In this document: positions 29,424-56,091 of the stretch, piece by piece
Numbering within the stretch: position 1 is the stretch's first letter
Layout of the letters: each line of letters opens with the position of its first letter
Assembly (NCBI GenBank): GCA_963665845.2
Contig: OY762492.1
Span: 2,688,001 to 2,752,000 of the forward strand
Reading direction: 5' to 3'
Origin: Candidatus Poribacteria bacterium
GTDB lineage: Bacteria; Poribacteria; WGA-4E; GCA-2687025
Length of the DNA: 64,000 nucleotides
Notes under the pieces: model-generated
What the model was told of the DNA's origin: nothing
The model's database searches: none
What the model saw: the letters and a program-made list of their open reading frames with translations, nothing else
Translations under genes and position numbers: made by a program

Positions 29424-29430
29424 GGCGGCG

Positions 29431-30758: not shown

Positions 30759-30773
30759 CTCAAGCGTATCCAT

Positions 30774-30802
30774 TTGACACGCGCCGCAAAAAGCGTTATC
30801 TT
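30774..30802 (+). promoter_or_regulatory. putative sigma70 promoter of the DUF4139 operon
   Basis: TTGACA-17 bp-TATCTT; RBS AGGAGG before ATG 30840. Confidence 0.6.
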
Positions 30803-30839
30803 GCCTGTAAGGTACCCTATTGAAAAGGAGGATGACCCC

Positions 30840-32135
30840 ATGAACCGCGCGCGTATGCATCTCTGGGCGGGCGTATGTCTCGGCGCGCTGCTGATGATCG
30901 GAGCCGCCGCGCTGCTCTGGAACCGCCCCGGCGAAGCGCAGGTGCAGCTTGTCACCGCCCCTGGACGAGACGCCGTCGAACTCACCATCTACGAAAGCGA
31001 AGACCTCACCTACGCCAAAGAGCGCCGAAACATCACCCTCCGCAAAGGAACCAACCTCCTCCAATTCAGCTGGGCGGGAACGCAGATCGACCCAACCAGC
31101 GTTCAGCTGGCGTCGGTCAGCGACCCTGAAAAGACGCGCGTCAAGGAAGCGATCTTTCCCAAGCATCTCAACAACGCCATCCAGTGGAGCGTCGAATCGA
31201 CCGACGGCGGCGCGAACATGGTGGAAGTCTCCTATTTCATCCGCGGGCTGCGTTGGCATGCGGACTACATGATGTTCGTCAACAGCGAAGAGACGCTGCT
31301 GCGCCTGCAGGGGCGTTTCACGCTTGTCAACCGCAGCGGCGAAGACTTTGAGGATGCGTCCGCCCGCCTCGTCGTCGGCGACATCCATCTCGTGTCGGAG
31401 GGTCAGCTTCAGGAGTCGCTCAAGCGGCTCGGCGGCATTTCCACAAAAGACGCTGCAATGTCTGTGACGTTTGGGGGAAGAGCGGTAGGGCGGGGCAGAA
31501 GCGCCCGCCAGCAGGCTGAAGCGCTGTCCGAATACTATATGTTCGCCGTCCCCGGCAAAAACACGCTTGAAAACGGCTGGACGAAGAAAATCGAAGCGAT
31601 GGATGTTCAGGACATACCGCTGGAAGTCGTGTACCGGTATTCGCCGAACGAACAGCTGGTGCGCCGAATGTACGCCTTCGTCAACAACGCCGACAGCCGA
31701 CTCGGCACGGAGCCGCTCCCAGGGGGAGCCGCGCGCGTCTTCATGGTTGACAGCGAGGGGCAGGTCGAGTTTGTCGGCTCCAATGGTCTTCGCTTCAGCC
31801 CTGTCAGCAAAGAGATCAAACTGGACCTTGGACATGAACTTGCCGTCACGGTGGAGCGCAAGCGAATGGACTTTAAAAAAATGAACCTCGCCTACAACGA
31901 CGACGGCGACGTCTCCCACTTCGACACCGAAGAAGAGATGCGCATCGAAGCGCGCAACTTCCGCCCCGAAAGCGTCCAGCTGGAGCTGCCCGAACGCATC
32001 GGCGGACAATGGGAAATGCTGCAATCCAGCCACGAATATGAACAGGAAGACGCCAGCTCCATTCTCTACACGATCGAGATCAAGCCTGGCGAAACGCAGG
32101 TCGTTCAATACCGCTTCAGGCGGCTCGGCAGATAG
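30840..32135 (+). CDS. DUF4139-like exported protein
   Basis: signal/TM segment; LTIY, ERR.I.L.KG.N, IDPTSV, Y...L.W.ADY, N.SG.DF.DA...LVVG, PLPGG. Confidence 0.7.
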   Translation: MNRARMHLWAGVCLGALLMIGAAALLWNRPGEAQVQLVTAPGRDAVELTIYESEDLTYAKERRNITLRKGTNLLQFSWAGTQIDPTSVQLASVSDPEKTRVKEAIFPKHLNNAIQWSVESTDGGANMVEVSYFIRGLRWHADYMMFVNSEETLLRLQGRFTLVNRSGEDFEDASARLVVGDIHLVSEGQLQESLKRLGGISTKDAAMSVTFGGRAVGRGRSARQQAEALSEYYMFAVPGKNTLENGWTKKIEAMDVQDIPLEVVYRYSPNEQLVRRMYAFVNNADSRLGTEPLPGGAARVFMVDSEGQVEFVGSNGLRFSPVSKEIKLDLGHELAVTVERKRMDFKKMNLAYNDDGDVSHFDTEEEMRIEARNFRPESVQLELPERIGGQWEMLQSSHEYEQEDASSILYTIEIKPGETQVVQYRFRRLGR

Positions 32136-32145
32136 GAGATTCATC

Positions 32146-33279
32146 ATGCGAAAGATATTGGTATGGACGCTGGCGGCGGCGTTTGTTTTAGCGGCGGGAT
32201 TGGCAATAGAACGCGCCGCGGCGCGCATCGGCCTCGTCACGATACCCGCCCGGCAGGACATACGCATCAAGATCGACCGCAGCAACAACGCGCTCGTCCA
32301 AGAACGGCGCGGCATCACCCTCAAAAAAGGCATGAACCGCATCGAGTTCAGCTGGCCGAACATGAAGATCGATTTCAACACGGCGCAGCTCCTCCCTCTA
32401 GAGCAGCAGGACGCGATCTCCATCTTGTCGGTCTCCGTGCCGCCGAACGCCGCCAACACGCTCATTTTGGAGGTGGAGAGCCAGAAGCCGAACCTTGTGC
32501 CGTTCCGCATCACCTATCTGACGAGCGGCATCTCATGGAAAGCGTCCTACACCTCCATCGCCGACATGGACGAAAAGACGATTCATCTGGAAGCGAGCGT
32601 CGCCATCTCGAACAACACGGTGGAAGATTACCATGACGCCGCCTTTGCGCTGCCGGTCGGCAAGCCGTTTCGTCAGTTTATTCAGAGCGGCGAGACGAAA
32701 AAGATCGTTCTGTTTACGGCGCCGGCGATTCCCGTAACGAAAACCTATCTGTCCGATCCGCGCGAATATCCGGACGCGGCGGCGATGCATTATGTGTTCA
32801 AAAACGAGGACGCGAGCGGCTTGAAGGAGGGCATGCTCCTGCCGGGGCGCGTCCGCCAATTCAAAAAAGACGCGACCGGAAGCGTCGCCTTTGTCGGCGA
32901 GGACATCCTCCGCTTTGTGCCGGTCGGGGACGAGATACGTTTATACCAGGGTCCGGCGCGCGACATTGAGGTGGAGCGGCGCATCATGAAGCGGGAGCGC
33001 ACATCGATCAAGCGGAACAAAAAGGGGCAGATCGTCTCCTACGACACGGACGAAACCTACCGCATCGCGATACAGAACCGCAAGCTGTCAGACGCGCCGC
33101 TGATTGTGCGGGCGCATCTGTCGAACTACTGGGAGATGAAGGAGCATTCGGAGCCGTTTGAGCGGAAAGACGCCGGGACGATTGAGTTTGAAACGACCGT
33201 TCCGCCCCGCTCCGAAAAGGAGATCACGTTCAGAGTGGAAGGCAAAAATCTCCAGAACGGGTATGTGCTGAACGAATAG
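32146..33279 (+). CDS. DUF4139-like exported protein (paralogue)
   Basis: LVQERR.I.LKKG.N.I.FSW, Y.TSGISW.ASY, LLPG.VR, F.GED. Confidence 0.7.
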   Translation: MRKILVWTLAAAFVLAAGLAIERAAARIGLVTIPARQDIRIKIDRSNNALVQERRGITLKKGMNRIEFSWPNMKIDFNTAQLLPLEQQDAISILSVSVPPNAANTLILEVESQKPNLVPFRITYLTSGISWKASYTSIADMDEKTIHLEASVAISNNTVEDYHDAAFALPVGKPFRQFIQSGETKKIVLFTAPAIPVTKTYLSDPREYPDAAAMHYVFKNEDASGLKEGMLLPGRVRQFKKDATGSVAFVGEDILRFVPVGDEIRLYQGPARDIEVERRIMKRERTSIKRNKKGQIVSYDTDETYRIAIQNRKLSDAPLIVRAHLSNYWEMKEHSEPFERKDAGTIEFETTVPPRSEKEITFRVEGKNLQNGYVLNE

Positions 33280-35094: not shown

Positions 35095-36831
35095 GTGTAC
35101 GAAGCGGTTGACCGGTCGTTGGTTGACATCTTAGAAGAAGGCGGCATGCTTTCACAGGAGCATTCCGCGCAGGCGAGAGAGCGGCTGGCGGAAGCGGACG
35201 GAACCGACGAAGCCTCCGTTTTGGAGGAGTTTGTCTCCGCCGCCGACCTGGAGCTGGCGGTGAAAAGCCGAGAATTCGGCGTCCCATGCGTCCGACTCAA
35301 CGGACAAGGCGACAACCAAGAGGTCGTCAGCAAAATACGCGCCAATTACGCCTACAAGTACAAGGTGGCGCCCGTCAGTATGGACGACGGAAAACTGGTC
35401 GTGGCGATGGCGGACCCGCTCGATATTGAGCTGATCGATGAACTGCGGGTGGTGACGGGGCATGACGTCGTCCCGCTCCTCGGCGACCAGTCCGACATCG
35501 AAGACGCCATCCGGCGCTACTACGGGCAATCGACCGAGCAGCTGATTAGCGGACAGCTGGCAGGTCCCAGCGGTTCGGTCACCATCGAAACGGTCGAAGA
35601 GATCCATGACTACGGCATGAACGCCGATGTCCTGGCGCGCGACCCGACCGTCAAAGAGGCGGTGAACCAGATCATCATCGACGCGGTGAGCGAAGGCGCG
35701 ACCGACATCCATGTGGAGCCGTTTGAGGACAGGCTGCAGATACGGTTCCGTCTGGACGGCATGCTGGAAGCGCGCACCTCGCCGCCGAAGCATCTCCAAG
35801 CGGCGATCTCCTCCTATATCAAGCTGCAGTCGGAGATGAACATCGCCGAGACGCGCCGCCCCCAAGACGGGCGCATCCAGGTGCGCATCGCGACTCTCGG
35901 ACAGCGCGAGATCGACATCCGCGTGTCCACCGTCCCAACGATCTGGGGCGAAAGCATCGCCATGCGTATCCTTGACAAAAACATGGTGCGCCTCGGTTTG
36001 CGCGAACTGGGACTTCTAGAACGCGATTTTGAACTTTTCCAGAAAATGATCCACAAGCCCTGGGGCATCATCCTCGCCACAGGACCGACAGGGAGCGGAA
36101 AAACCACCTCCCTGAACGCGATTTTGAACGAGATCAAAGATGTCGGAACGAAGATCATCACGGTGGAAGACCCCGTTGAATACGACATGGACGGCATCAA
36201 CCAGATCGGCGTCAACGCCGAGATCGATGTTACCTTCGCCCGCGCGCTGCGGCATATTCTGCGGCAAGACCCCGACAAGGTGATGGTCGGCGAAATCCGC
36301 GACCTTGAAACGGCTGAAATGGCGATCCACACCTCGCTGACGGGGCATCTTGTTCTCTCGTCGCTGCATACGAACGACGCGCCGCAGGCGATCACCCGTA
36401 TGATCTCGATGGGCGTCGACCCGTATCTGGTCTCGTCAACTTTGGAGGGGGTCATCGCGCAGCGTCTGCCTCGGCGCGTTTGCCGAGCCTGCGCCCGGAT
36501 GGAACCGCCGACCCATGAGGAGCTGCTGGCGGTTGGCGTGGATCCTGACCAAGCCGACCCTGACTGGTTGGTTCCGCAGCCTGTCGGCTGCGCGCAATGC
36601 CGCGGGACAGGCTACCGCGGGCGCATCGGCATTTTTGAAATCATGCAGATGACCGAACCGCTGCGCGAGCTGGCGCTCCAGAACGCGTCCGCGTACCAGA
36701 TACGCCAGCATGCGGTCAAGGAAGGCATGCGCTCCCTGCGCGACGACGGATGGGAAAAGGCGCTGAACGGAATCACCACTGTCGAAGAGGTGCTGCGCCT
36801 CACGCCGTCCGCCGGAACGGTAGGCGCCTGA
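35095..36831 (+). CDS. gspE: type II secretion / type IV pilus assembly ATPase
   Basis: ATDIHVEP, PQDG, GPTGSGKTT, EDPVEY, LRQDPD, GEIRD, TGHLV.S.LH, CxxC..CxxC zinc motif. Confidence 0.9.
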   Translation: MYEAVDRSLVDILEEGGMLSQEHSAQARERLAEADGTDEASVLEEFVSAADLELAVKSREFGVPCVRLNGQGDNQEVVSKIRANYAYKYKVAPVSMDDGKLVVAMADPLDIELIDELRVVTGHDVVPLLGDQSDIEDAIRRYYGQSTEQLISGQLAGPSGSVTIETVEEIHDYGMNADVLARDPTVKEAVNQIIIDAVSEGATDIHVEPFEDRLQIRFRLDGMLEARTSPPKHLQAAISSYIKLQSEMNIAETRRPQDGRIQVRIATLGQREIDIRVSTVPTIWGESIAMRILDKNMVRLGLRELGLLERDFELFQKMIHKPWGIILATGPTGSGKTTSLNAILNEIKDVGTKIITVEDPVEYDMDGINQIGVNAEIDVTFARALRHILRQDPDKVMVGEIRDLETAEMAIHTSLTGHLVLSSLHTNDAPQAITRMISMGVDPYLVSSTLEGVIAQRLPRRVCRACARMEPPTHEELLAVGVDPDQADPDWLVPQPVGCAQCRGTGYRGRIGIFEIMQMTEPLRELALQNASAYQIRQHAVKEGMRSLRDDGWEKALNGITTVEEVLRLTPSAGTVGA

Positions 36832-38117: not shown

Positions 38118-38621
38118 ATGGCACGAAAACTGCTCAATAAACTCCGACGGCGGAGCAACGGCGACGAGGGTTTCACACTGGTGGAAGTTCTGGTCGTTTT
38201 GACGATCATCGGAATTCTTGCGGCGGCGATCTCGCCCGCTGTCCTCAAAGAAATCGGCAAAGCAAAACAGCAAAAAGCGCAGCAGCAGATCTCCATCTTC
38301 GCAGGCGCCCTGAAACGGTACAGCCGCGATGTCGGCGACTACCCGACAACAGAAGAGGGGTTGATGGGGCTGATCCAAGCGCCCAGCGGCGTGACCGGAT
38401 GGGACGGACCCTATCTGGAAGAGGCGCTGCTCCCTGACGGAACCATGAAGCCCGACCCCTGGGGGAACCAGCTGGAGTACGTCTATCCAGGCGCGCACCA
38501 AGCCCTGACCTACGCCTTCGACCTGACCAGCTACGGCAGAGACGGACAAGAAGGCGGTACCGGCGTCGACTCCGACATCTCCAACTGGGCGGGCGTCATG
38601 GACGAAAGCCAGGAAGAGTAA
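38118..38621 (+). CDS. gspG: major pseudopilin
   Basis: GFTLVE prepilin site; YPT.EEGL..L, W.GPYL, DPWGN...Y..PG, SYG.DG..GG...DI.NW. Confidence 0.92.
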   Translation: MARKLLNKLRRRSNGDEGFTLVEVLVVLTIIGILAAAISPAVLKEIGKAKQQKAQQQISIFAGALKRYSRDVGDYPTTEEGLMGLIQAPSGVTGWDGPYLEEALLPDGTMKPDPWGNQLEYVYPGAHQALTYAFDLTSYGRDGQEGGTGVDSDISNWAGVMDESQEE

Positions 38622-38635: not shown

Positions 38636-39265
38636 ATGAACGCAATGCGCATGAACCCAGAACGCTCTCAAAGAGGCTTCACGCTGGTCGAAATGCTGGT
38701 CGTGCTGGCGATCATTTCGCTCATGCTGGCGGTCGCGGCGCCCTCGTTCAAAAACTTTTCGGACAAGCAAAAGTTGGAGACCGCAGGCGACGCGGTACGC
38801 AGCCTAGCGCATTACGCGCGCGACACCGCCATGGCGGACGGAGAGCCGTATATGATCGTGTTCGACTTCGTGCAGCAGACCTTCTGGCTTTCAAAAGCCT
38901 CCGCCCTGGAATACGGCGACCTGTCGATGAGCGCCTATCTCGGATCCTACGGACCCGAAGCGGAAGGCATGTCGCCTGAAGAGATGATCGCCGAACGCGC
39001 CCACGGCATACTGGGCGATATGCGCGAAATGGACGCCGTCGTCTCAATAGACCGAGTCGATGTGGAGCGCGAAGGCGCCATCGTGAGCGGCGCGCCCGAT
39101 TATGAATATGTCCAGTTCAATGCGGACGGCACCGCCGAGCCGGCAAGCGTCTATCTGTTGAATAACCGGAACCAAGCGGCGGTTGTGGATGTATGGCTCC
39201 GCGCTTCCCGCATTGATGTTCGGATGTTGAACGATAATGAGGCGTCCGAACTGGTTGAACGGTAA
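38636..39265 (+). CDS. gspH: minor pseudopilin (GspH/FimT-like)
   Basis: RGFTLVEMLVVL, F.ADG; position after gspG. Confidence 0.7.
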   Translation: MNAMRMNPERSQRGFTLVEMLVVLAIISLMLAVAAPSFKNFSDKQKLETAGDAVRSLAHYARDTAMADGEPYMIVFDFVQQTFWLSKASALEYGDLSMSAYLGSYGPEAEGMSPEEMIAERAHGILGDMREMDAVVSIDRVDVEREGAIVSGAPDYEYVQFNADGTAEPASVYLLNNRNQAAVVDVWLRASRIDVRMLNDNEASELVER

Positions 39266-39290
39266 CGCTGTGAAGAGAAACCGCGCCGCC

Positions 39291-39701
39291 ATGAACAAAT
39301 CTTCTGGGTTCACTTTGCTAGAGGTGCTGGTCGCGCTGGCGATTATCGGCGGAACGCTGCCGTTTTTGGCGCTGGCGCTGGCGAACACCTCGCGCATGAG
39401 CGCCGAGTCGAGAGACCTGATCACCGCGTCGCATCTGCTGCGCGATAAAATGAGCGAACTGGAATCGGTCGAATCGCTTCCGTCGGGGCAATCGCAGGGC
39501 GAGTTCCTTGAAGGCGCCCGCTTTCAATGGCAGGTACAGATCTCTCCAACAACCTACAACTCCCTCTACGACGTCTCGGTGATGGTTACATGGCTTTCAG
39601 GCGGAATACCGAAACGGCTCGGCGCCCGAACCTACATCATGGGCGAAGCGCAGGAGGCGGAAGAAGAGGGCGGACAGCAAGGCGGACAAGGAGCCAGATG
39701 A
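39291..39701 (+). CDS. gspI: minor pseudopilin (GspI-like)
   Basis: GFTLLEVLVALAI; small size and gene order. Confidence 0.7.
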   Translation: MNKSSGFTLLEVLVALAIIGGTLPFLALALANTSRMSAESRDLITASHLLRDKMSELESVESLPSGQSQGEFLEGARFQWQVQISPTTYNSLYDVSVMVTWLSGGIPKRLGARTYIMGEAQEAEEEGGQQGGQGAR

Positions 39702-40534
39702 TGCAAAGACGCGCTCAAAGACGCAAAGACGCGGGCTTCACGCTGGTCGAACTGCTCGTCACTATGGCGATGGTGACGATCGTCAGCGGCATCGTCTACT
39801 CCTCCTTCAGTAACGCGCTCAGCTCCTATAGCAAGGATTCGTCCAAGATGAATGAGGCGCGCGCCATACGCGCCGGACTGCAGGGGCTGGCGGACGATAT
39901 GTCGAACGCTGTCGGCGACGCTGCGAACCTTGATTTCATGTTTCTGTTTCAGGACATGGAGGGGCTTGAAGGCTACGGGCAGGACATCGTCAGCTTCGTC
40001 ACCTCCACCGAGCCGAACACGGCGGAAACGGAAAGCCTCAACAACGGCGCGCCGCCAAGCCGCGCCGGTACGCTCCAAAGCTCCATCATTGAGGACGAGG
40101 AGGAAGACGCCCCGCAAGCGGCGTCCGATCTGATTCGTATCGCGTATATGGTCGGCGCCAGCCAGGACAACCCCCCAGACGAAAACGCCGAGATTCAACC
40201 GCAGGCGCTTCTCAAAGTGATCTCGCCGACGCTGGACATTGAGGAGCTGCTGGGAGATTCGGGGCTGTCGCAGGATGTCGAATCGATGCTTGCCGCGCTC
40301 ATGGAGCAGGGGGCGGAGGTGGAAACGGTCGTTGACTCGGTTCTGGGGCTAGATTTTGAGTTTTTTGACGGCGAACAGTGGACGCCGATGTGGAACACGG
40401 AGGAGCAGGGGGTTCCGCTGGCGGCGCGCGCCAAGCTGACCGTCGGCAACGCGGCAAATCTAGAAACCGCGCTCACCCGCTCCACCACCGCGCGCATCGC
40501 CGTCACAAGCGTCCCAGGAGGAGCGGGAAATTGA
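39698..40534 (+). CDS. gspJ: minor pseudopilin (GspJ-like)
   Basis: GFTLVELLV; C-terminal L.F.FFDG..W...W......P.A motif. Confidence 0.7.
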   Translation: MMQRRAQRRKDAGFTLVELLVTMAMVTIVSGIVYSSFSNALSSYSKDSSKMNEARAIRAGLQGLADDMSNAVGDAANLDFMFLFQDMEGLEGYGQDIVSFVTSTEPNTAETESLNNGAPPSRAGTLQSSIIEDEEEDAPQAASDLIRIAYMVGASQDNPPDENAEIQPQALLKVISPTLDIEELLGDSGLSQDVESMLAALMEQGAEVETVVDSVLGLDFEFFDGEQWTPMWNTEEQGVPLAARAKLTVGNAANLETALTRSTTARIAVTSVPGGAGN

Positions 40535-41949
40535 AACGCCCCAACGACGCCGGCCTCGCCCTCATCACAACGCTCTGGGTCATCGCCATCCTGTCCATAC
40601 TCGTTACAGCGTATCTGTACGACGCCCATCTGGACTGGCGAATCAGCCGCCGCGCCGTTGAAAAAACGCAGGCGGAATACGCCGCCAAAGCCGGCATCTC
40701 CCAATTCCAAGCGGTACTGGAAGACGACGACGAATCGTACGACGACGCCCAAGAGGACTGGGGGCAGGGCGTCAGCGGGCAGATGGAAGACCCCGCCGGG
40801 ACAGGCAAGGCGTTCAGCTACTCTGTCAGCGCGACCGATCTGAACGCGCTTATCGACATCAACTCGGCGGATGAAACGGTCGTCAGCTCGCTGCTGCAAA
40901 GCGCGGGCGTCCCGGAAGAATCGCGCACAACGCTGGCGCAAAACATTGTCTCGGCGCGGGATCAACGCCCCTTCCTAACGCCAGGCGACCTCGCCCGCGT
41001 GGAAGGCATGACGAACGCGATTCTATACGGCGGTCAAGCCGCGCCCGCAGAAGGCGAAGAAGCGCAGCAAACGACTCCGCTTATCAACCTTATCAGCGTC
41101 TATTCCGTCGATAAGAATGAGCAGTCGAACGGAACCAGCCGGACGAACATAACCAGCGCGGACGCCAACACGCTCCGCCAAAATTTAACGAACTCGAGCG
41201 GCGAGGAGCTGCTGTCTCAAAATGAAGCGGACGCATTGGTCAGCTACCGAGACGACAACGAACTGGAATCGATCGGCGATCTGTTCGACGCGACGGCAAT
41301 CACCCAAGAGACGCTGAACGACATCCGCGGCGATCTTAGCACAGACGATTCGGACGACGACGACGAGGACGAAACGACCAACATCAACACGGCAGACGCC
41401 GACCAGCTCGCCAATGTAGACGGGCTGGATCAAGGCACGGCGGAAGCGATCGTTCGTTACAGGGACGAAAACGGGAACTACGACAACGTGGACGATATAC
41501 AGAACGCGCTCATCTTCACCCGCGATGAGATACGGCAGATCGCCGACAAAGTCACGGTGACAGACGACGACACTTTAACCGGCGTCTTGAACCTCAACAC
41601 AGCGGGCGCGAGCGCACTGGGGCTGCTGCCGAACATGAACAACCAGAAGGCGCAGGCGATTGTGAACCAGCGGCAAGCGCAGCAGGCGTCCAACGAACAG
41701 CAAGGCTCCGGCGCCGAGGAGGCCTCCGCCTCCTCCAACCCGTTCCGATCCATCGGCGATCTGCTCAACATCGACAGCATCGACGCGGAGACCTTTAAAG
41801 GAATCGCCAACCTTGTGACCTATAGAACGCAGGCGTTTCAGCTGACCGCAAACGGGATGGACCCCGCAGGGGCGCAAGCGGCGACCGTCACCGCGATCAT
41901 CGACCGCAGCGGCGAGGAGATCAGCATTCGTTTCTGGCGCATTGAATGA
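40531..41949 (+). CDS. gspK: GspK-like minor pseudopilin with four helix-hairpin-helix repeats
   Basis: GLALITTLW (no Glu5), A.YAAKAG, D.NA.IDIN; repeated .NINTA....L..G.....A.AIV..R motif; TTG start. Confidence 0.75.
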   Translation: MKRPNDAGLALITTLWVIAILSILVTAYLYDAHLDWRISRRAVEKTQAEYAAKAGISQFQAVLEDDDESYDDAQEDWGQGVSGQMEDPAGTGKAFSYSVSATDLNALIDINSADETVVSSLLQSAGVPEESRTTLAQNIVSARDQRPFLTPGDLARVEGMTNAILYGGQAAPAEGEEAQQTTPLINLISVYSVDKNEQSNGTSRTNITSADANTLRQNLTNSSGEELLSQNEADALVSYRDDNELESIGDLFDATAITQETLNDIRGDLSTDDSDDDDEDETTNINTADADQLANVDGLDQGTAEAIVRYRDENGNYDNVDDIQNALIFTRDEIRQIADKVTVTDDDTLTGVLNLNTAGASALGLLPNMNNQKAQAIVNQRQAQQASNEQQGSGAEEASASSNPFRSIGDLLNIDSIDAETFKGIANLVTYRTQAFQLTANGMDPAGAQAATVTAIIDRSGEEISIRFWRIE

Positions 41950-41997: not shown

Positions 41998-43932
41998 GTG
42001 GCTAGCAAAACGATCATCGGCATCGATATCGGCGCCCACTGCGTCAAAGCGGCGCGCGTCGAAGACAAAGGCGGGTTCACGGTTCTGGGCATCGGCGAGG
42101 AGCCAATGCCCCCAAACGCTTCGATTGAGCAGCAAAAAGAAGCGATCCAAAAAGCGCTCAACCAAGCGGGCGGACGGCGCAGCCGGTGCGTCATCGGCGT
42201 GCCGCGCGACCAGGTCGTCCTGCGGCGAATCGACAAGCTGCCGAAAGACCTGGACGAAGCGAGCATGCGGGAAGTGGTGCGCCTCCAGGCGGACAGCGAG
42301 CTGCCGTTTGATCATGGCGAGGCGGTGTACGATTATCTGAATGTGCGCGAGAGCGAGGAATCCGCTTCGGTGGAGATCGTCGCGGCGCGGCTCAGCGAAG
42401 TGGAGCGTCTCGTCAACAGCGCGCGCGAAGCGGGCGGCAAGCCGGTCGCCATCGCGCCGTCGGTGTTTGCGATCCCGGCGCTCGCGCGGCTGCACGCCGG
42501 CAACGAGACGGACCATCGCCATCTGCTCATTGTGGATATCGGGCATTCGGCGACCGAGGTCGGCGTCATTTGCGACGGCGCCATCGAAACGACGCGCAGT
42601 TTCCCCATCGGCGCCGACCAGCTGCGCAACGGCGACGCGCGCATCCCTTCCCTCTTTATCGGCGAATTGACGCGCACCGTTCAGGCGCACAAGCGGCAGT
42701 TTGAAGACGACAAGCCGTTCGACGACATCTGGCTCTGGGGCGGCGGCGCCTCCATGCGCTTCGACAACCTGACCGAAGACGGCGCGTCGGTCTCGCTGGC
42801 GCAGCTGATCGAAGCGCAGCTGGGCGCGCCCGTTCATACGAACATCGAAATCGGCGGGTTCAAGGACGCCTCCAAGGTGAGCGCGGAGCCTGCAGGCTGG
42901 CATCGATACGGCGTCGCGCTGGGGCTGGCGGTCGGCGAGCTGTCCGGGACGCTGGAAGCGAACCTGATACCGAAAATGGACAAGGAAAAGCATGAACAGG
43001 CGGACCGCAACAGGCAAGCGCTCGTTTGCGTCATCGCGGCGGCGGCTTTGACCGCGGCTATCGCCCTGCTCAGCGCCCAGATCAAGCGCAGCCAGGCGGA
43101 GGATGTGCGCAGCCTCAACAACGAAATCAAAACCTATAGAGCGGACAAGGCGATCTCCGACCAAGAAGCGTCCAAAATCCGCCGTATGAACGCCTACATG
43201 GAGCCGAAATACTCGGTTCTGGATGTGCTGCGGGAGCTGACCGCTCTTCTGCCGGACCGCCCCTCGGTCGCGGCGACCGCGATACAGTTTTCCGATTCGG
43301 GCGAGGTGCAGATCGAACTGCAGGGAAGCTCGCATGACATCGTCAAGGAGACGGCGCGCAAGATCGCCCGATCGCCATGGTTCGACTCGAACGAAATCTC
43401 CCTCAGCCAAGTAACAACGTTCGAGGAAAACAGGCGCCAGATCCATCAGTTCAGGGTCACCGCTCAAGTGTCGGTCAACGCCCCGGTTCTAGCCGTCCGA
43501 AAGATCGGAACCGGCAACGAACCGACCGCTGAAGCGGAACCGCAGGGTCAACGCGGCGGAGGCAGACAAACCGCCCAAAGCGGCGGAAATCAGCAGCGGG
43601 GAGGAGGCGGCAGCCGCCAGGTCTCTTCGCGTCAAGGCGGCGGACGCGGCGGCGAAGCGCGAGGAAGCGGCTTCCAGCAAAGCGGCCAAGTCTCCATTCA
43701 GAACGTAAAGGCGGCGGCGGAGTTTGAAGCTATCGAAGGCTCCGAGAAAATAGAGGCGGCGTTGAAAGAGGCGCTGGGGAAAGAAGGCGTCAGCATTGAG
43801 CTGGACGCGGAAGCGCTTGAAAAGCTGAAGTCGGAGGGAATCGCAGTGATAAAGAGCGACGCCTCCATCGACAGCGGAACGATTGAAACCATCAAGATCG
43901 ATGTGTCAACAAGCGAAGAAAAGGACGAATAG
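41998..43932 (+). CDS. GspL / PilM-PilN fusion protein
   Basis: N-terminal actin-like IGIDIG...VK, VDIG...T, ANLIP then a TM helix and PilN-like periplasmic region; G/Q/R-rich tail. Confidence 0.7.
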   Translation: MASKTIIGIDIGAHCVKAARVEDKGGFTVLGIGEEPMPPNASIEQQKEAIQKALNQAGGRRSRCVIGVPRDQVVLRRIDKLPKDLDEASMREVVRLQADSELPFDHGEAVYDYLNVRESEESASVEIVAARLSEVERLVNSAREAGGKPVAIAPSVFAIPALARLHAGNETDHRHLLIVDIGHSATEVGVICDGAIETTRSFPIGADQLRNGDARIPSLFIGELTRTVQAHKRQFEDDKPFDDIWLWGGGASMRFDNLTEDGASVSLAQLIEAQLGAPVHTNIEIGGFKDASKVSAEPAGWHRYGVALGLAVGELSGTLEANLIPKMDKEKHEQADRNRQALVCVIAAAALTAAIALLSAQIKRSQAEDVRSLNNEIKTYRADKAISDQEASKIRRMNAYMEPKYSVLDVLRELTALLPDRPSVAATAIQFSDSGEVQIELQGSSHDIVKETARKIARSPWFDSNEISLSQVTTFEENRRQIHQFRVTAQVSVNAPVLAVRKIGTGNEPTAEAEPQGQRGGGRQTAQSGGNQQRGGGGSRQVSSRQGGGRGGEARGSGFQQSGQVSIQNVKAAAEFEAIEGSEKIEAALKEALGKEGVSIELDAEALEKLKSEGIAVIKSDASIDSGTIETIKIDVSTSEEKDE

Positions 43933-43935
43933 ACG

Positions 43936-46032
43936 GTGAAATTTGAACTGGGCGGAGCCGTTTCGGATCGCAGCGTCAAGCTGCTACTCATCGTCGCGGT
44001 CGTTGGGGTCGCGCTCTTTACGGCGTTTCAGCTGATCGGAATTCTCAGCGGACAAGAAAATGTGGACGCTAAAAAACAGGAGCTGGCGGAAGCGTCGCTC
44101 ATGTCGCGCCTGCAAGAGCCGCTCAAAACGGCGGCGCGTTCCATTCAGGACGCCTCGAAGACGTCGGGAGAAACGCTGCCCCAGCCGGTCATCGACAAAA
44201 TGAAAGAGGTGTACGCTGTCAAGCCGACGCCTGAAAACGGAAAACGCTCTATCCTGACAGCGAGCGCAAACGACCTGATGGCGCGCCTGGGCGTCAACCC
44301 TCGGCAGGCGCAGTTCATCCTTGAAAACAGGGCGGGCGTTGAATCGGTCGACGATTTCTCGGACCGGCGGCGCAACCTGTTTGACGCGAACGCGGACACC
44401 ATTGAGCCGATGATCCTGCAAAAAATCGCGCAAATCGCCGGCAGAAGCGGCATTCAAAAACTGGATTTTGTGAAGGTTGAACAGCAAACCAAAGTCGATA
44501 AAACGCAAGCCGTCCTCGTCAAACCAAGCCCGATCTCCATCCAAGACCTGGCGGAGCGCAGAGCCGCCATCCGAGAGGCGCTGGAGTCGGAGCATTCCGC
44601 CCCGCTGCAGGAAGCGGCGCAGCGGCTGATTCAGCTGACGCGCGACGACCCTTCCATTCGAAACAGCGCGGAGGACAACCTCGAATCGATGATGGACAAC
44701 CCCAACCTTTCTGCGGACAAGGTCGCCCAGCTGCGCCTCGCCCATCTCGCCTCGCAGCCCTCCAAGATGCGTATACTGGACAGCCTGCTGCGAACGCATA
44801 TGCAGGATGGATTGAGCCGAATTCCGCCGGAACCAGCGCCAGAACCGGAGCCGCAAACAAACGGCGAAAACGAAGCCGAAAACGCCGCTGAAAACGAGGC
44901 AGAGAACGGAAACGAAACCGAAGAAGAAAACGGCTCCGAAAATGCTGAAAATAACGAGGAAGGCGGAAACGAAAACGCAAACGGCGAGGAAGGCGGAAAC
45001 GAAAACGCAAACGGCGAAAATGAAACGAAAACAGAAGCCGATGACGCCGAAGCGGACAATGTCAAGGAACCGTCTAAACCGCCGGCGCATCCCGCCCCCA
45101 TCAAATTTGGAGCGTACCCCTATCCGCGCATCCCCCAAATAGAACCGGCGGCGCAGAAGCGGTTGATGGAAACGCTCCGCGACAACCAAGCCGCCTGGCT
45201 CAGCGACGACCAGCTGCGTTACATTCTGGATGTGAAAGAGGAGGAGCCGAAGCCCGACAATACAGACACAGAAGAGGGCGCGACCGAAAACGAAGATGAG
45301 GGCGGCGGCGAGAATGCCGAAAACGAAGATGAGGGCGGCGGCGAGAATGCCGAAAACGAAGATGAGGGCGGCGGCGAGAATGCCGAAAACGAAGATGAGG
45401 GCGGCGGCGAGAATGCCGAGACTGAAAACGAAGAAGAAAACGGCGCGCAAGAAACTACAGACGCCGATCCGAACGAATCTGAAGAGGCGGCAAACGAAGA
45501 AAACGGCGGCGGCGCGAATCAAAACGAAGGCGACAACGCCAACGGCGGCGACGCGAATCAAAATGAAAACGAGAGCGACAACGGAAACGGCGACGGCGCT
45601 GACCAAGATGAAAACGCCAACGGCGACAACGGAAACGGCGAAGCGAAAGACGAAGAGAACGGAGACAGCGAAGCGAACGGCGACGAGAGCGGGGACGATC
45701 AAAACGACGGCGAAGACGCCCAAGACGAGAGCGAGAGCGGACCGCCGCCGTTCACCCATCCCGACCTCGAAGAGATACGCGCCTACCATGTCAAGCTGAT
45801 CGATACGTTGTGGCGCATATCGGAGGCGGTGGATAAACCGTCCCCCTCCAAGCCGATCATCTACACGGCGGCGACCGAATTTCGGGCGCGGCTCGAAAAC
45901 CTCACCCGATTCGTGTACCAGCTGGAAGGGGAAGCGCCGTGGATGCGCATCTCCGAACTCAACCTGACAAAGCACAACGAAGACGGTCCAACGCTTCTCG
46001 TCCGAGTGACCGTCAAAGCGACCATCTTTTGA
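43936..46032 (+). CDS. GspM/PilO-position membrane protein with long acidic low-complexity inserts
   Basis: N-terminal TM; C-terminal F....L.RF.Y.LE.....I..L ferredoxin-like PilO/GspM pattern; E/N/G/D-rich tracts. Confidence 0.55.
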   Translation: MKFELGGAVSDRSVKLLLIVAVVGVALFTAFQLIGILSGQENVDAKKQELAEASLMSRLQEPLKTAARSIQDASKTSGETLPQPVIDKMKEVYAVKPTPENGKRSILTASANDLMARLGVNPRQAQFILENRAGVESVDDFSDRRRNLFDANADTIEPMILQKIAQIAGRSGIQKLDFVKVEQQTKVDKTQAVLVKPSPISIQDLAERRAAIREALESEHSAPLQEAAQRLIQLTRDDPSIRNSAEDNLESMMDNPNLSADKVAQLRLAHLASQPSKMRILDSLLRTHMQDGLSRIPPEPAPEPEPQTNGENEAENAAENEAENGNETEEENGSENAENNEEGGNENANGEEGGNENANGENETKTEADDAEADNVKEPSKPPAHPAPIKFGAYPYPRIPQIEPAAQKRLMETLRDNQAAWLSDDQLRYILDVKEEEPKPDNTDTEEGATENEDEGGGENAENEDEGGGENAENEDEGGGENAENEDEGGGENAETENEEENGAQETTDADPNESEEAANEENGGGANQNEGDNANGGDANQNENESDNGNGDGADQDENANGDNGNGEAKDEENGDSEANGDESGDDQNDGEDAQDESESGPPPFTHPDLEEIRAYHVKLIDTLWRISEAVDKPSPSKPIIYTAATEFRARLENLTRFVYQLEGEAPWMRISELNLTKHNEDGPTLLVRVTVKATIF
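45286..45417 (+). repeat. intragenic 33-bp tandem repeat x4 (ENEDEGGGENA)
   Basis: GAAAACGAAGATGAGGGCGGCGGCGAGAATGCC repeated four times; a 30-bp duplicate also at 44956-45015. Confidence 0.9.
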
Positions 46033-46055
46033 AGACGACAACGAAGGAGCGACTC

Positions 46056-46748
46056 ATGATACGAAGAACAGCGGTTGCGTTGTTTGCGATGGCGGCGATG
46101 GCGGCTCCGCAGCTTTACGCGGACGAGCGCCCGCCGATGGACTACTACAAGATTCTCTCCGAGAAAAACCTGTTCCGAAAACTGGGCTGGAAACCGCCCG
46201 ACAACCGCCCGCGCTACAGCCTGCTCATGACCGTAGTGATCGAAGACGAGACCGAAGAGGAAGAAACGGTTGAATTGAGCGAGGAAGAGCAGTTTCTGCT
46301 GACGCTTTACGGGAATGAACTGGAAACGCCGGAAGAGTCGACCGCCGAGCTGGAAGCGGAGCCGCGCAAGAACTACGCCAGGATCCAGCGGCAAGGCGGC
46401 TCCACGTATACCGTGGACGAAGGGGACCAGTTTGAAGGCATGACGCTTGTCTCCGTCGGCTATGGGCGGGTCGCCATCGTCAACGGCGAGGGCGAAGAGA
46501 CGAACCTATCGCTTCCGACCGCCTCCGGCGCATCCGGCGGAAGCGCCAACCAGGGCGGCAGCTCGCGCAGCCGAGCGCAAGCCTCCTCCCGTTCCAGCGA
46601 GAGAGGCGGGCGCGGCGGATTCCCTGAAGGCATGCCGGCCGATATGCGCGAACGGATGGAGCGGCTGCGCAACGCCAGCCCCGAAGAGCGCGCCGAAATC
46701 ATGCGGGAATTCCGCGGACGAGGCGGCCGGCGAGGCGGCAGAGATTGA
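46056..46748 (+). CDS. exported protein, GspC/PilP-like by position
   Basis: signal peptide, Y..I.EKNLF, A.I......YTV.EGD.F.G..LV.V (HR/PilP-like), R/G-rich tail; directly before the secretin. Confidence 0.5.
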   Translation: MIRRTAVALFAMAAMAAPQLYADERPPMDYYKILSEKNLFRKLGWKPPDNRPRYSLLMTVVIEDETEEEETVELSEEEQFLLTLYGNELETPEESTAELEAEPRKNYARIQRQGGSTYTVDEGDQFEGMTLVSVGYGRVAIVNGEGEETNLSLPTASGASGGSANQGGSSRSRAQASSRSSERGGRGGFPEGMPADMRERMERLRNASPEERAEIMREFRGRGGRRGGRD

Positions 46749-46847: not shown

Positions 46848-49817
46848 GTGAAACCATTGAGGATGCCCATGTTCACCCGTAGTTACCGCCGCCTGATCGT
46901 CTTTGCCGCCGTCTGCTTGACGGCGCTGCCCGCCGTCTTGAACGCCCAGCAGGGCATGCAGGTCACCGAACGCGGCGACGACGATAAAGCGGCAAGACTC
47001 ACCCTAGACTTCGTCAACGTCGAACTGAAGGATCTGATCCAGTTTATTCAGCGCGAAACCGACCTGACCATCATCTCCACCGAACGGGACATACAGGGCA
47101 AAAAGCTGTCGCTCGTCAACCTAAAAAATGTGACCATCGACGAGGCGCTGGAAAAAATCAAAACGGGGCTGATGCAGTTCGATCTGACAACGATTCAGAC
47201 CGACTCAACGCTTCTCATCACGACCGTTCAGAAAGCGGTCAGGATGAAGGTTCCCGTCTCCTACGGCGCCGACCCTGAATCGATACCCGACTCGGATCAG
47301 GTCATTACGCATGTGATCCCGCTGAAGCATCTGAACGCGGACGAGATCGCCGGAAAGCTTGGATCGTTGAAGTCGGACGCCGGCGTTCTGTTTGGCGACC
47401 GTGAATCGAACACGATCGTCATCACCGGCATCGCCTCCAACATCCGGCGCATTGCGACCTTCCTAGCGCAGATCGATGTCGCCAGCATGGACATACAGCT
47501 GTTTGAAACCGAGGTGATTCAGATCAACAACACCGAAGTGGACGAGATTGAGGACGCGCTGGAGGACCTGTTCGGCAGATCAGGCGACACCGCGCGATGG
47601 TTTTACTCCGACTCCGGCGGCTCGGCGGCGTCGGCGGGGCTGGCGGTGTTCATCACCAGCAATGACGAAACGAACCAGCTGATTGTCCGCGCGACAAAAG
47701 AAAATATGGATTACGTTAAAGAGCTGGTCGCCAAGATGGATGTCGCCCCGTCGCTTCAAACCGATGTGCGCGTCTTCCCGCTGAAATACGCGAACGCCAG
47801 CAATGTGGTCGATATTTTGCAAGAGGTGCTGGAAGGCTCCTCCTCCTCAAGCAGCCGCAGCAGCCGATACTACTACTCCTCATGGTACGACCGAAGCCGA
47901 GGCAGCGATTCGCAAGGGGTCGCCGGCGAGATTCAATACGCCGCTGACGAACGGCTCAACGCGGTCGTCATCTCCTCCGACCCCAGCAACTGGACCATCA
48001 TTGAAACGCTGATCAATGAGCTGGACATACAGGACGACCCAGGGAATGAGATCGAAATCTTCGTCTTGAAAAACGCCAACGCCGAAGCGCTGGTCCAAAA
48101 CATTCAGGAGCTGATCGACGGACAGGACGACGACGACCGAGACCGCTACCGGTACTGGTGGTACGACGATTACGATCAGGGCGACGACGATTCAGACAGC
48201 GGCTTTGGGCTTCAAGGCGAAGTGAACCTGACGGCGGACACGCGCCTGAACGCGATCGTCGCGGCAACCTCCTCCAAGAACCTAGCGGTGCTGAAAGACC
48301 TGATCAACCGCATGGATGTGAGCATGCCCGAACAGGAATGGGGAACGCGCATCTTTCCGCTGCAGTACGCAGACGCGACGAAGATCGCCGAGGTGCTGAA
48401 CGCCGTCTATCAAGGCGGGGGTCAGCAAGGCGGAGGCGGCGGAGGCGGCTTTTTCTCTTTCTTAGAATCGGTGCGAAGCCGCAACCAGGGCAACACCGCC
48501 CAAGGCTCGCTCGCCGGCAATGTGGTCGCGGCGGCGTATCCGACGACAAATTCGATCATCATTTCAACGGGAACGGCGCGCAACTTTGAGCTGATCGAAG
48601 AGTTTATCAAGGAGCTGGACATTCCGACGCCTGAAGGGCAGCGCGAAATCACGCGCGTTTTCAACCTTGAATACTCGGACGCGACGCAGCTGGAGCCGCT
48701 CCTGTCCCAAATATGGAGCAGCAGCTCGCAAGACCAGGGCGGCGGTTTTCCGTTCTTCGGTCCATTTGGGCGCTTCTCGCAATCCGCGGCTGAACAGAAT
48801 ACGGACATCAACAGCCTCATCGACAAGGTGAGCCTGTTCGCCGACGAACAGACCAATTCGCTCGTCATCACAACCCGCTCCCGCTACATTGAGGATATTG
48901 AAAAGATCGTCCGCGCGCTGGACATCGTCCGCGGGCAGGTCTGGATCGACATCCATATCCTTGAGCTGACGCTGGACGACACAACGAAGATGGGCATTGA
49001 GATGGCGCTGATGGAGAAACGGCTCTTTGGAACAGACGCCTTCGGCAAAAACCGAGAGCCTGGCTCCAACCCGCTCACCGGCGAATTCAATTCGTCGCTC
49101 AATTTGGAGCAGCAGATCACCGGCTTTTCCGTTCAGGCGGCGACAAACGAGTACATGGGCTTTCTCCATACGCTCATGCGCAGCAACAAGGTCAGGACGC
49201 TCTCCTCGCCTAGTTTCATGGTGCGCGACAACCAGCCCGCCACCTTCGTAAGCGGGCGCGATATTCCGTATCTGCAGAGCGCCCGCACCTCCGACCTGCT
49301 GGAAGGGCAGATCTTCGACTTTGACTTCCTGCAGGACATCGGCATCAACATCAGCATCACGCCGCGCATCGCGCGCATGACCGCAGGCGACCGCGGCAAA
49401 CGCACCATCGGCTTGCAGATCGATCAGATCACGGCAAGCAATTTCATTGAGTTCACCAACTTCAACGCCCCGCTGACCGAAGAAAGCACCGTCTCCACCT
49501 TTATCGACGCGGAAGACGGGCAGCAGATTGTGATCGGCGGCTTGAAGAAGCGTAAACAGCAAGAGGTTGAAGAAAAGGTGCCGGTTCTGGGCGACCTGCC
49601 GCTTGTCGGGGCGCTCTTCCGCCGGACAGAGAATATCGCGCAGGACTCGGAGGTCGTCATCGTTATCACGCCGCGCATCGTCGACATCAACAACCCTGAA
49701 GACAGAGCGCGCATGCAGGACATACAGTATGATCAGTTCGGCTCTCATGACGATCTCCTGACGCCGTTAGAGGAGACAACGGGCGACGCCGAAGTCGAAG
49801 CGCCGATGAGCGAATAA
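46848..49817 (+). CDS. gspD: type II secretion secretin with six NolW-like periplasmic repeats
   Basis: LDFVNVEL N0 domain, repeated F.L.YA.A....D.R.N.... units, LD..R.QV.I...I.E, LS.P....DN, VIGGL, KVPVLGDLP.VG.LF, ITPRIV. Confidence 0.9.
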   Translation: MKPLRMPMFTRSYRRLIVFAAVCLTALPAVLNAQQGMQVTERGDDDKAARLTLDFVNVELKDLIQFIQRETDLTIISTERDIQGKKLSLVNLKNVTIDEALEKIKTGLMQFDLTTIQTDSTLLITTVQKAVRMKVPVSYGADPESIPDSDQVITHVIPLKHLNADEIAGKLGSLKSDAGVLFGDRESNTIVITGIASNIRRIATFLAQIDVASMDIQLFETEVIQINNTEVDEIEDALEDLFGRSGDTARWFYSDSGGSAASAGLAVFITSNDETNQLIVRATKENMDYVKELVAKMDVAPSLQTDVRVFPLKYANASNVVDILQEVLEGSSSSSSRSSRYYYSSWYDRSRGSDSQGVAGEIQYAADERLNAVVISSDPSNWTIIETLINELDIQDDPGNEIEIFVLKNANAEALVQNIQELIDGQDDDDRDRYRYWWYDDYDQGDDDSDSGFGLQGEVNLTADTRLNAIVAATSSKNLAVLKDLINRMDVSMPEQEWGTRIFPLQYADATKIAEVLNAVYQGGGQQGGGGGGGFFSFLESVRSRNQGNTAQGSLAGNVVAAAYPTTNSIIISTGTARNFELIEEFIKELDIPTPEGQREITRVFNLEYSDATQLEPLLSQIWSSSSQDQGGGFPFFGPFGRFSQSAAEQNTDINSLIDKVSLFADEQTNSLVITTRSRYIEDIEKIVRALDIVRGQVWIDIHILELTLDDTTKMGIEMALMEKRLFGTDAFGKNREPGSNPLTGEFNSSLNLEQQITGFSVQAATNEYMGFLHTLMRSNKVRTLSSPSFMVRDNQPATFVSGRDIPYLQSARTSDLLEGQIFDFDFLQDIGINISITPRIARMTAGDRGKRTIGLQIDQITASNFIEFTNFNAPLTEESTVSTFIDAEDGQQIVIGGLKKRKQQEVEEKVPVLGDLPLVGALFRRTENIAQDSEVVIVITPRIVDINNPEDRARMQDIQYDQFGSHDDLLTPLEETTGDAEVEAPMSE

Positions 49818-49819: not shown

Positions 49820-50977
49820 ATGCGTTTACCGTTGACCGGCAAACGGAGCGATCATCTGAAAATCGGCGTCGCCGCGGCAGGCAGGGGCGACCTAGAAACG
49901 GTCCGCGAAATCGCGCGCGTCAAGCCCGAATGGATTCGGCGCGTCGCGTCCCACGGGCGAACGATGCTCTGGGAAGCGGCTTGGCGCGGCAAGCTGGAGG
50001 TTGTGAAATTCTTGGCTGAAGTCGGCGCGGATGTGAACGCGCATGGCTGCCATTACACGCCCCATCGCATTGAGATCAGCCCCGTCTGCGCCGCCCGTTT
50101 AGCGCGGCGGACGGAGACAGCGGAGTGGCTGTTGAAAAACAGCGCCGTTTATGACGTCTACGCCGCGGCGTATCTGGGCGACCTGCCCGCGCTCAACAGG
50201 TTGCTGGATGAGGATCCGTCCCAAATAGAAGCGGGAAATCCGCAGGCGGAAATCGCCGCTGACGCCGTTGAAGAGGACGGCTCGCCGATGTTGGCGCCGG
50301 CGCCCGCGCCATGGGCGACTCCTTTAATGTACGCCGTTTGCGGTCAACAGCTGGAGGCGGTTCATTTGCTGATTGAGCGCGGGGCGGACGCCGTTCAACA
50401 CAGCAAGACGCTGATGGGCGATGTCCGAGAGCATGTGGACATCGCGCGCGCGTTGATAGAGGCGGGCGCAAATCCGCATGACGCGCCGACGCCGATTTCG
50501 GCGCAGGACGGGGTCGGCAAGCTGTTGGCGGAATACGGCGTTCAGCCCGACCCGAACAAGCCTGTTCATTGGGGCTGGCCGCCGATTGTGTATTACAGCC
50601 GAGGCGACAAGGGGGAAAATCCGCAGCGCATTTTAGAGCTGATTGCGGCGGGCGCGGATGTGAACGCGCGAAACCGCAAAGGCAAAACGGCGCTCCACGC
50701 GGCGGCGAAAGCGGGTTTCTCCAAAACGATGGCGGCGCTTCTGGAACATGGCGCCGACATCAACGCGCGGGACAACGCCGATGAAACGCCCCTGTTCGAC
50801 GCGGTTCGCTCCACGATACGCAAAACCGATAAAAAGATTGCCGCCGTTGAAACGCTGCTGGCGTCCGGCGCGGACGCCTCCGCCGTCAACAAGAGGGGCG
50901 AAACTCCGCTCGCTGTCGCGCAGCGCTCCCGCCGCGAAGGCGCCGACAAGATCGTCCGCCTTTTAAGAGAGGTCTGA
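49820..50977 (+). CDS. ankyrin repeat protein
   Basis: G.TALHAAA, GADVN, ETPL repeats. Confidence 0.9.
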   Translation: MRLPLTGKRSDHLKIGVAAAGRGDLETVREIARVKPEWIRRVASHGRTMLWEAAWRGKLEVVKFLAEVGADVNAHGCHYTPHRIEISPVCAARLARRTETAEWLLKNSAVYDVYAAAYLGDLPALNRLLDEDPSQIEAGNPQAEIAADAVEEDGSPMLAPAPAPWATPLMYAVCGQQLEAVHLLIERGADAVQHSKTLMGDVREHVDIARALIEAGANPHDAPTPISAQDGVGKLLAEYGVQPDPNKPVHWGWPPIVYYSRGDKGENPQRILELIAAGADVNARNRKGKTALHAAAKAGFSKTMAALLEHGADINARDNADETPLFDAVRSTIRKTDKKIAAVETLLASGADASAVNKRGETPLAVAQRSRREGADKIVRLLREV

Positions 50978-54969: not shown

Positions 54970-56091
54970 ATGACCTTCTCCGCCTTCACAAAACCCGTGG
55001 CGGCGTTCGTGTCCGCTGTCTTCTCGCTTCTGTTGTGCGCGTCCGCGCCGGCAAGAGACTTTGTCCCAAAGGAAGATGTAACAAGACTGGAGAAGCCGAC
55101 CCTCTGCGTAAGGAGCGGAGACACGCTTAAACTCATCGACTGGGACGGTCAAAATGAAAGGGTCTGGATGACAGGCGAATTCAACGGCCCCGCTAGATTT
55201 AGCCGGGACGGCAAGCGCGCCGCCTTCATCGCCAGTACGGACGATTTCGGTTGGTACACGATGTTCATCCTGGAGCTGGAAACAGGGCGGCTCATCAACA
55301 TGACCGAGCGCCTCGACAACAAAGGATATGAACATATTTACATTCCATTTGTAGCGTGGTTTCCAGACGGGAGGCGTCTTGCATGCGCCGCAAAAGACAG
55401 AAACAACCCGTTCCCATCGTTTGGAGACATCTATGCGTTGGATTTCCGCGCCGCGGCGCTGGAGCAGCTCACCAAGACGCCGGATCAGGATGAATATTGG
55501 CCGTCCGTCTCTGGAGACGGCAAGAAGATCGTTTACAGTTCCACTCCCAGCGACAAGGAGAGAGCTGCGCTCGGTCTCACTGGAGATCACTGGCGCAAAC
55601 ATCTCTATACGATGAACGCTGACGGCTCCAACGTTGTCAACCTGACGTACAGCGCTGCAACCGAGAGATACCCCGAATGGTCGCCGGACGGCAAGAAGAT
55701 TGCGTTTGAGGCGTTCGACCGCAAAGATCAGGAAGGAGAGATTGGAGGACCTGACGTTTATATGATGGACCCGGACGGTTCCAATGTTGAGCGTCTCACA
55801 TCCCGCAAAGACGGATTGCGGGCAAGCCTCAGCGATTGGTCGGCGGACAGCAGATGGATTCTGTTCCATATAAAACTTGACGACAACCACAACCCGCTGA
55901 GCGGACTTTACCGCATTCATATAGAGACGCGGGAGATCGTGCGCATCGGCCGATTCGGCGCAACGACATGGGTTCATGCGGGCAAGAGCCGTTTCCTCTC
56001 CGTTGACCCTGCCGGTAAGAAAAAAGCGCCATGGGGAGCGTTGAAAGCGGCGGACCGTAGCGATAAACCAACTCCGCAAGACGGCGACTAA
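54970..56091 (+). CDS. TolB-like (PD40) beta-propeller exported protein with a C-terminal VDPAGK..WGALK tail
   Basis: P.WSPDGKKIAF, YTMNADGSN...LT repeats; signal peptide. Confidence 0.85.
   Translation: MTFSAFTKPVAAFVSAVFSLLLCASAPARDFVPKEDVTRLEKPTLCVRSGDTLKLIDWDGQNERVWMTGEFNGPARFSRDGKRAAFIASTDDFGWYTMFILELETGRLINMTERLDNKGYEHIYIPFVAWFPDGRRLACAAKDRNNPFPSFGDIYALDFRAAALEQLTKTPDQDEYWPSVSGDGKKIVYSSTPSDKERAALGLTGDHWRKHLYTMNADGSNVVNLTYSAATERYPEWSPDGKKIAFEAFDRKDQEGEIGGPDVYMMDPDGSNVERLTSRKDGLRASLSDWSADSRWILFHIKLDDNHNPLSGLYRIHIETREIVRIGRFGATTWVHAGKSRFLSVDPAGKKKAPWGALKAADRSDKPTPQDGD

Follow-up and report, generated by a model that had tools for sequence, protein, structure and literature searches.

What might a secretin gain from four stacked domains that each carry a predicted disordered, aromatic-tipped loop? 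The question is raised by a gene at positions 46848 to 49817 of a 64,000-nucleotide stretch of a Candidatus Poribacteria genome (assembly GCA_963665845.2, contig OY762492.1, positions 2,688,001 to 2,752,000), which is referred to here as the window. An initial annotation, made from the sequence alone, described the product as an elongated secretin whose extra N domains might form a filter like that of the FG nucleoporins. By the features tested, the gene encodes the secretin GspD of a type II secretion system (T2SS) and closes the T2SS operon of Ca. Poribacteria. Its parts are as follows.

46848..49817, + strand: gspD secretin gene; 989 amino acids (aa) from GTG; TIGR02517 440 bits, cut-off 351.35
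46848..46946, + strand: signal peptide region, Sec type, by inspection of the sequence
46992..47231, + strand: probable N0 domain; weak PF21305 match; aligns with the N-terminal region of 3ezj, 5wq7 and 5zdh
47298..47480, + strand: N1 domain, loop insert absent
47499..47741, + strand: N2 domain, insert 47574-47639
47757..48026, + strand: N3 domain, loop 47838-47912
48042..48317, + strand: N4 domain, loop 48123-48206
48336..48620, + strand: N5 domain, loop 48417-48500
48639..48923, + strand: N6 domain, barrel-proximal, best match canonical N3; loop 48717-48803
48924..49697, + strand: secretin barrel domain, PF00263; top structural matches are T2SS secretins

The assignment to the secretins made in the initial annotation was confirmed. 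The cut-offs of TIGR02517 and of the Pfam Secretin domain PF00263 (120.5 bits; cut-off 27.5) were both exceeded, and a T2SS operon is in place. The database copy of the product is 982 aa long, the length obtained from the ATG at 46869, which is probably the true start. Identity as the type IV pilus secretin PilQ was considered and dismissed, since the model TIGR02515 scored 231.7, under its cut-off of 284.35, and no retraction ATPase was matched; the SctC model also scored under its cut-off. A tblastn search of the source genome, which is 90% complete, with the operon ATPase returned that gene itself and no paralogue, so PilT would appear to be absent from this assembly, in which gspD is also the only secretin gene. 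The named homologues of the product are from Ca. Poribacteria, and a secretin domain was found in 150 of the 151 genomes of the phylum Poribacteria.

The six N-domain repeats that had been counted after N0 were recovered both with Pfam, as six Secretin_N stretches, and with a profile built from the family; of the 81 loci it was applied to, 79 gave a count of six, and two are truncated. The PF21305 match to N0 lies below the cut-off (15.6 bits against 27), but the region lines up with the N-termini of solved GspD structures and is folded in keeping with N0 in the AlphaFold model, which also predicts a short helix at the C-terminus. In profile comparisons the canonical counterpart of N1 was N1 and that of N6 was N3; N3, N4 and N5 were also closest to canonical N3, the closest pair being N3 and N4, and N2 was ambiguous between canonical N2 and N3. 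The simplest history would be that a loop-bearing domain of the N3 type was duplicated in tandem. PulD, with four N domains, is given a length of 20 nm (PMC6882859) and Thermus thermophilus PilQ, with six rings, one of 35 nm (PMC5745081); on this basis the seven rings of the present protein are estimated to span about 28-40 nm. A wide periplasm is plausible, by analogy with the Thermus precedent and with the long proteins encoded at the gspM position (see below).

All five aromatic motifs reported in the initial annotation are present at the places given for them (47589, 47841, 48126, 48414 and 48729), but the five inserts are not alike. Those of N3 to N6 lie between helix 1 and strand 2 and have pLDDT values below 50 in two AlphaFold runs; that of N2 is partly helical, with pLDDT values of 50-70 in the full model. 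Predicted disordered loops at the site of the canonical N3 loop are thus supported for N3 to N6; the N2 insert is different. Residue 657 of the product aligns with residue 302 of PulD (6hcg, its numbering assumed to equal that of the paper); in PulD, loop 288-303 is unmodelled and constriction sites are described in N3 (PMC6882859). The N3 loop of phage pIV is described as directed into the middle of the pore (PMC8563730), and a Deinococcus secretin as having a 59-residue gap in the corresponding domain (PMC10828601). Judged by alignment, the N3-N6 loops occupy the canonical N3-loop site, and by homology they would face the lumen.

The aromatic content of the loops was analysed in 120 homologues and in 15 representatives of less than 70% identity. 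Aromatic residues were present in the N3-N6 loops of all 120 homologues. The N2 insert was without an aromatic residue in 44 of the 120 and in 8 of the 15 representatives, its patch being specific to this lineage and most homologues having a non-aromatic, helix-like insert. The idea of five equivalent loops was dismissed on this ground: the five exist in the window gene, but N3 to N6 alone are features of the family. Clusters of at least three aromatics in six residues were observed in the N5 loop of 118 of the 120 sequences (38.5 expected from shuffling), in the N6 loop of 102 (28 expected) and in the N4 loop of 66 (27 expected, the scanned segment taking in one conserved flanking Phe); in the N3 loop clustering was at the level of the shuffled sequences (7 versus 5.8).

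It is apparent that each loop has a character of its own. The N3 loop is rich in Trp and Arg, with scattered Trp, and is the most distinct between paralogues; N4 has a conserved patch of the Pro-Trp-Trp type; N5 has a Phe cluster, replaced by Trp or Tyr according to clade; and N6 has Phe in the spacing of an amphipathic helix (moment z median 2.3, above 1.5 in 10 of 15). As N6 alone passed in this respect, the notion that all the loops are amphipathic helices was dismissed. The dominant aromatic is mostly Trp in N3 and N4 and mostly Phe in N5 and N6. The loops are 17-37 aa long (medians 22-31), have an aromatic content of 8-18% and are of Arg/Gly/aromatic composition, with aliphatic residues very scarce. 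The main patch, usually one per loop, sits at 0.41-0.46 of the loop length, and a single cluster was observed in 8 (N3), 14 (N4), 13 (N5) and 9 (N6) of the 15 representatives. As a control, polar, aliphatic-poor 24-mers were collected from an approximate gene set of the source genome; 102 of 1508 (6.8%) had at least three aromatics in six residues, all five GspD inserts among them.

The expectation that aromatic patches would persist while the linkers diverge, proposed as a check in the initial annotation, was borne out: among the 15 representatives, aligned aromatic positions remained aromatic in 69% of cases, compared with 21% identity at polar positions. In 861 non-independent pairs from 73 loci, with scaffold identities of 80-95%, aromatics were the best-kept residues of the loops (83%, versus 64% for other residues excluding Arg and Gly). 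The pN/pS ratios for these pairs, based on uncorrected pS values that are near saturation, were 0.25-0.26 for the loops; the scaffold was lower, at 0.13, and the N2 insert higher, at 0.35.

Additional data came from one poribacterial genus, represented by 38 genomes, in which tandem copies of the six-domain secretin are frequent. All 24 loci fetched (L082-L085 and L104-L123), which were selected for at least two matches in the genome search, hold two or three intact, adjacent copies. For 26 within-genome pairs, scaffold identity was 80-98% and that of the N3 loop 33-65%. The copies were at least 95% identical in nucleotide sequence across N0 in 15 of the 24 loci, across the N6 loop in one and across the N3 loop in none. 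In a subset of 12 genomes, picked by N3-loop type and hence partly circular for that loop, scaffold pS was 0.27 within genomes and 0.53 in comparisons across genomes, suggesting gene conversion of the scaffold while the N3 and N6 loops remain apart; the N3 loop there had a pN/pS of 0.18 and a cross-genome identity of 82%. The N6 loop was fully homogenised in one locus, so conversion of a loop is possible. As the scaffolds are homogenised and the N3 and N6 loops stay different, the sequence of the loops appears to matter.

FG nucleoporins have disordered domains of hundreds of residues, many interchangeable motifs, and shuttling receptors. Among the 15 representatives, FG dipeptides were absent from the N2, N3 and N4 loops (0/15 each) and were found in the N5 loop of 3 and the N6 loop of 6. 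With FG rare, mostly one patch per loop and loops of 17-37 aa, a filter of the FG-nucleoporin type in the literal sense was not upheld, and by the two features tested (FG count and length of the disordered domain) this GspD is not an FG-type barrier. A second class of poribacterial GspD, of about 800 aa, was also observed (for example L089:5361-7814; proteins P0365-P0484), with four N domains in all 108 long members. Of the 345 loops in this redundant set, 317 contain FG and 224 contain GGFGG; from its sequences the class would suit the idea of an FG-like barrier better than the window gene does.

The reading that we prefer, tentatively and with slightly less than even confidence, is that four stacked aromatic constrictions plug the resting lumen and grip the cargo. 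GspD would have been lengthened by extra copies of the N3-type domain, and the N3-N6 loops, predicted to be disordered, would point into the channel, their orientation and a roughly 15-fold ring being taken over from homologues. The aromatic tips of the loops would then meet as four stacked, sticky constrictions, which are proposed to close the resting tube. The pseudopilus would drive cargo outward past the constrictions, each of which would grip it transiently, ring by ring, and as the cargo passes the loops would fold back along the wall, in the manner of the InvG N3 loop. With the rings towards the periplasm rich in Trp and Arg, and those close to the gate rich in Phe and Gly, the contacts would be specific to each ring and not those of a uniform gel. 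For 15 subunits, 26-residue loops and a ring height of 28 Å, all assumed, and ring diameters of 67-90 Å taken from the literature, the loops are estimated to fill 30-53% of the ring lumen at 400-720 mg/ml, with aromatic side chains at 0.56-1.0 M; with this geometry, mid-loop tips could reach the axis.

Several observations weigh against this proposal. The two AlphaFold monomer models have low pTM values (0.35 and 0.41). The retention of aromatics is inflated, since aligners anchor on them, and the pS values are, as noted, uncorrected and near saturation. The strongest figures for the paralogues come from the 12 genomes chosen in advance by N3-loop type; the difference shrinks once all 23 two-copy loci are included, to 55% for copies in the same position versus 47% for copies in the other. 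The folded halves of N3, like its loop, reached 95% identity in none of the 24 loci (medians 78-79%), and the target of selection may therefore be N3 as a whole. Gly/Phe-rich stretches are also present outside the channel, in the GspC tails of relatives, which calls for caution in reading composition as function. The InvG loop is described as finally passing out between domains, where it serves as a structural element (PMC6155069). Finally, a SprA-like gene for 2,205 aa (G000:C1:935094-941711), PorV-like genes (at 1875496 and 3741002) and 53 type IX-like tails were found in the source genome, and much export may therefore bypass the GspD channel. These genes suggest a reduced type IX-like pathway; GldM was not matched in a search of that genome in which no control matched either. 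An earlier paper states that no structural genes of the type IX pathway were found in Poribacteria (PMC3909097).

Other explanations were weighed against the same data. The aromatic patches might be structural latches: each loop, folding as it binds, would dock into the groove that separates adjacent rings or subunits and stiffen the long tube while it assembles or once it is filled by the pseudopilus. The report on InvG is consistent with this, as in the presence of the needle the N3 loop is ordered as a helix lying between N3 and N1 (PMC6155069), and so are the helical spacing in the N6 loop and a fixed patch type particular to each ring. The loops are, however, undocked and of low confidence in both AlphaFold monomer models, the giant secretins (see below; median 33.5 N domains) cope with aromatic-poor loops, and paralogues whose scaffolds are 92-98% identical keep very different loops, which would not be expected if these docked on the scaffold; we regard docking as rather unlikely. 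The Arg/Gly/aromatic, aliphatic-poor composition of the N3-N6 loops, the estimated concentrations (for the assumed ring sizes), the exchange of Phe, Trp and Tyr between clades in the N5 patch and the FG-rich loops of the second class would each suit a selective phase that is cohesive and tolerant of sequence, comparable with the FG meshwork in nuclear pores or the YG phase of peroxisomal PEX13, into which cargo would dissolve. Against such a phase stand the short loops, with mostly one fixed patch and rare FG, and the retention of paralogue-specific loop sequences. In other secretins the gate of the barrel seals the channel, and GspD has a barrel domain of its own; a shuttling receptor is not known. 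This explanation is considered improbable. Equally doubtful, in our view, is the bolder form in which the tiers of aromatic loops constitute a selective barrier, a small convergent counterpart of the meshworks in nuclear pores and peroxisomes, where loop sequences would set passage, duplicated secretins would diversify in specificity through their loops alone, and the GGFGG class would be the more FG-like version.

The loops could also have a binding partner that is not cargo: the tip of the pseudopilus, a plug protein or a chaperone, for example, or, where the locus is duplicated, the sister subunit in a mixed ring. A plug density is reported to occlude the lumen of PulD at N0-N1 (PMC6882859), and adjacent tandem copies keep two versions of the loops. 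The operon shows no obvious gene for such a partner, however, and single-copy genomes, including the source genome, bear the same patches, so we place this possibility a shade lower still. Least probable by far is that, in a lineage prone to Gly/Arg/Phe tracts, the loops serve as spacers of low complexity that evolve almost neutrally; the similar tracts in GspC tails and the variation in lengths and spacers would agree with it, but the patches are kept across the 15 representatives, pN/pS is about 0.25, and such clusters occur in just 6.8% of comparable proteome segments.

The genes upstream of gspD are co-directional with it and follow the order gspE, F, G, H, I, J, K, L-like, M-like and C-like.

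35095..36831, + strand: GspE/PilB-type ATPase, the sole one in the genome
36750..38090, + strand: GspF platform protein
38118..38621, + strand: GspG major pseudopilin; TIGR01710 123.9, cut-off 88.85
38636..41949, + strand: minor pseudopilins H, I, J and K (K with helix-hairpin-helix repeats); family matches under cut-off
41998..43932, + strand: GspL-like PilM-PilN fusion
43936..46032, + strand: GspM-like protein, 698 aa, with long acidic inserts; weak C-terminal NF040576 match
45939..46748, + strand: GspC-like protein; weak NF041515 match

GspG exceeded its equivalog cut-off, and E, F, H to K, M and C fell below theirs. The protein at the GspM position is 428-657 aa long in relatives (12 of the 12 loci listed); GspM of studied systems has about 165 aa. 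A separate GspC-like gene was found in 6 of 81 loci only, M adjoining D elsewhere. An ankyrin-repeat gene (49820-50977) begins 3 bases past gspD, and some loci of relatives have an open reading frame of 380-420 aa in this position. Upstream of the operon, 25768-33279 holds paralogous exported genes (two porin-like, three short membrane-type and two MuiA-family-like), of which the five scanned gave weak or sub-cut-off matches. Away from the operon, an orphan GspG-like gene with a short N-terminus (G000:C1:2593696-2594115) stands beside a gene for a membrane-anchored protein of 691 aa. A short tail with a Trp-Gly core ends 121 proteins of the source genome (window example 54970-56091), 90% of which have an N-terminal hydrophobic stretch, compared with 41% of all proteins. 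The idea that these 121 proteins are GspD cargo found no support.

Elongated secretins and N-domain loop gates are already known; conserved aromatic-tipped loops on four rings were not found in searches of an open-access library. Judged from titles and the beginnings of abstracts, these searches likewise returned nothing on poribacterial secretins, aromatic secretin loops, analogies between secretins and nucleoporins, or giant planctomycete secretins. How the T2SS recognises its substrates is stated in a review to be not known (PMC9251779). The N3 loop, which is unresolved in the secretin structures consulted and resembles featureless polar filler in 14 canonical controls, is here quadrupled, patched with aromatics and kept different by duplicated genes. 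Nature has thus in effect swapped loops, in a way that bears on whether those in the lumen close the channel or choose its cargo. The phylum, nearly all of whose genomes encode a secretin, is a major group of sponge symbionts, and the host is uncultured.

Comparison with known systems places these features in context. The loops share with the FG nucleoporins and the PEX13 YG domain aromatics in polar, disordered chains that are proposed to line a conduit for folded proteins; those domains are long, with many motifs, whereas the loops here are short, with mostly one position-specific patch, and there is no homology. A profile search of 1.84 billion proteins returned mostly secretins of 2,100-5,500 aa (144 of 149 examined), from Phycisphaerae or Planctomycetota wherever the source gives a taxon (proteins P0122-P0364), and a protein atlas returned Secretin_N clusters only, with Planctomycetota the commonest phylum where known. 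Among 236 of these giants the number of N domains has a median of 33.5 and reaches 55. They resemble the window gene in the tandem expansion of N domains and the site of the loops, and differ in having far more than its six N domains and loops that are Ala/Gly/Arg-rich and aromatic-poor (2.9% aromatic; 65 of 3671 clustered). Elongation and aromatic patches as a single innovation were dismissed on this evidence; elongation is modest here, separable from the patches and not unique.

The remaining parallels are with secretins of studied systems. InvG of Salmonella has a disordered N3 loop, a proposed periplasmic constriction, that becomes ordered once a filament fills the lumen, but it belongs to a type III system and has a single such loop (PMC6155069). 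PilQ of T. thermophilus likewise has an elongated stack, N0-N5, said to cross a wide periplasm, and a second gate built of long N-domain loops. It is, however, a 13-mer secretin for type IV pili and DNA uptake with one ring fewer, and its gate loops are other ones, at N0/N1, with no mention of aromatic patches in the passages on them (PMC5745081). The closest relatives are the T2SS secretins GspD, PulD and XcpQ (5wq7, 5zdh, 6hcg, 5wq8 and 5wln), which provide the top sequence and structure matches and share a probable N0, KH-like N domains, the barrel, an unresolved loop at the same N3 site and the full Gsp operon. In 14 canonical GspD controls, hand-picked for diversity from 60 plasmid matches listed, the N3 loop has 2.9% aromatics, compared with 8-18% here, with no Trp and in no case two aromatics in six residues. 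The present protein differs from these secretins in having six N domains as opposed to three, and four loops as opposed to one.

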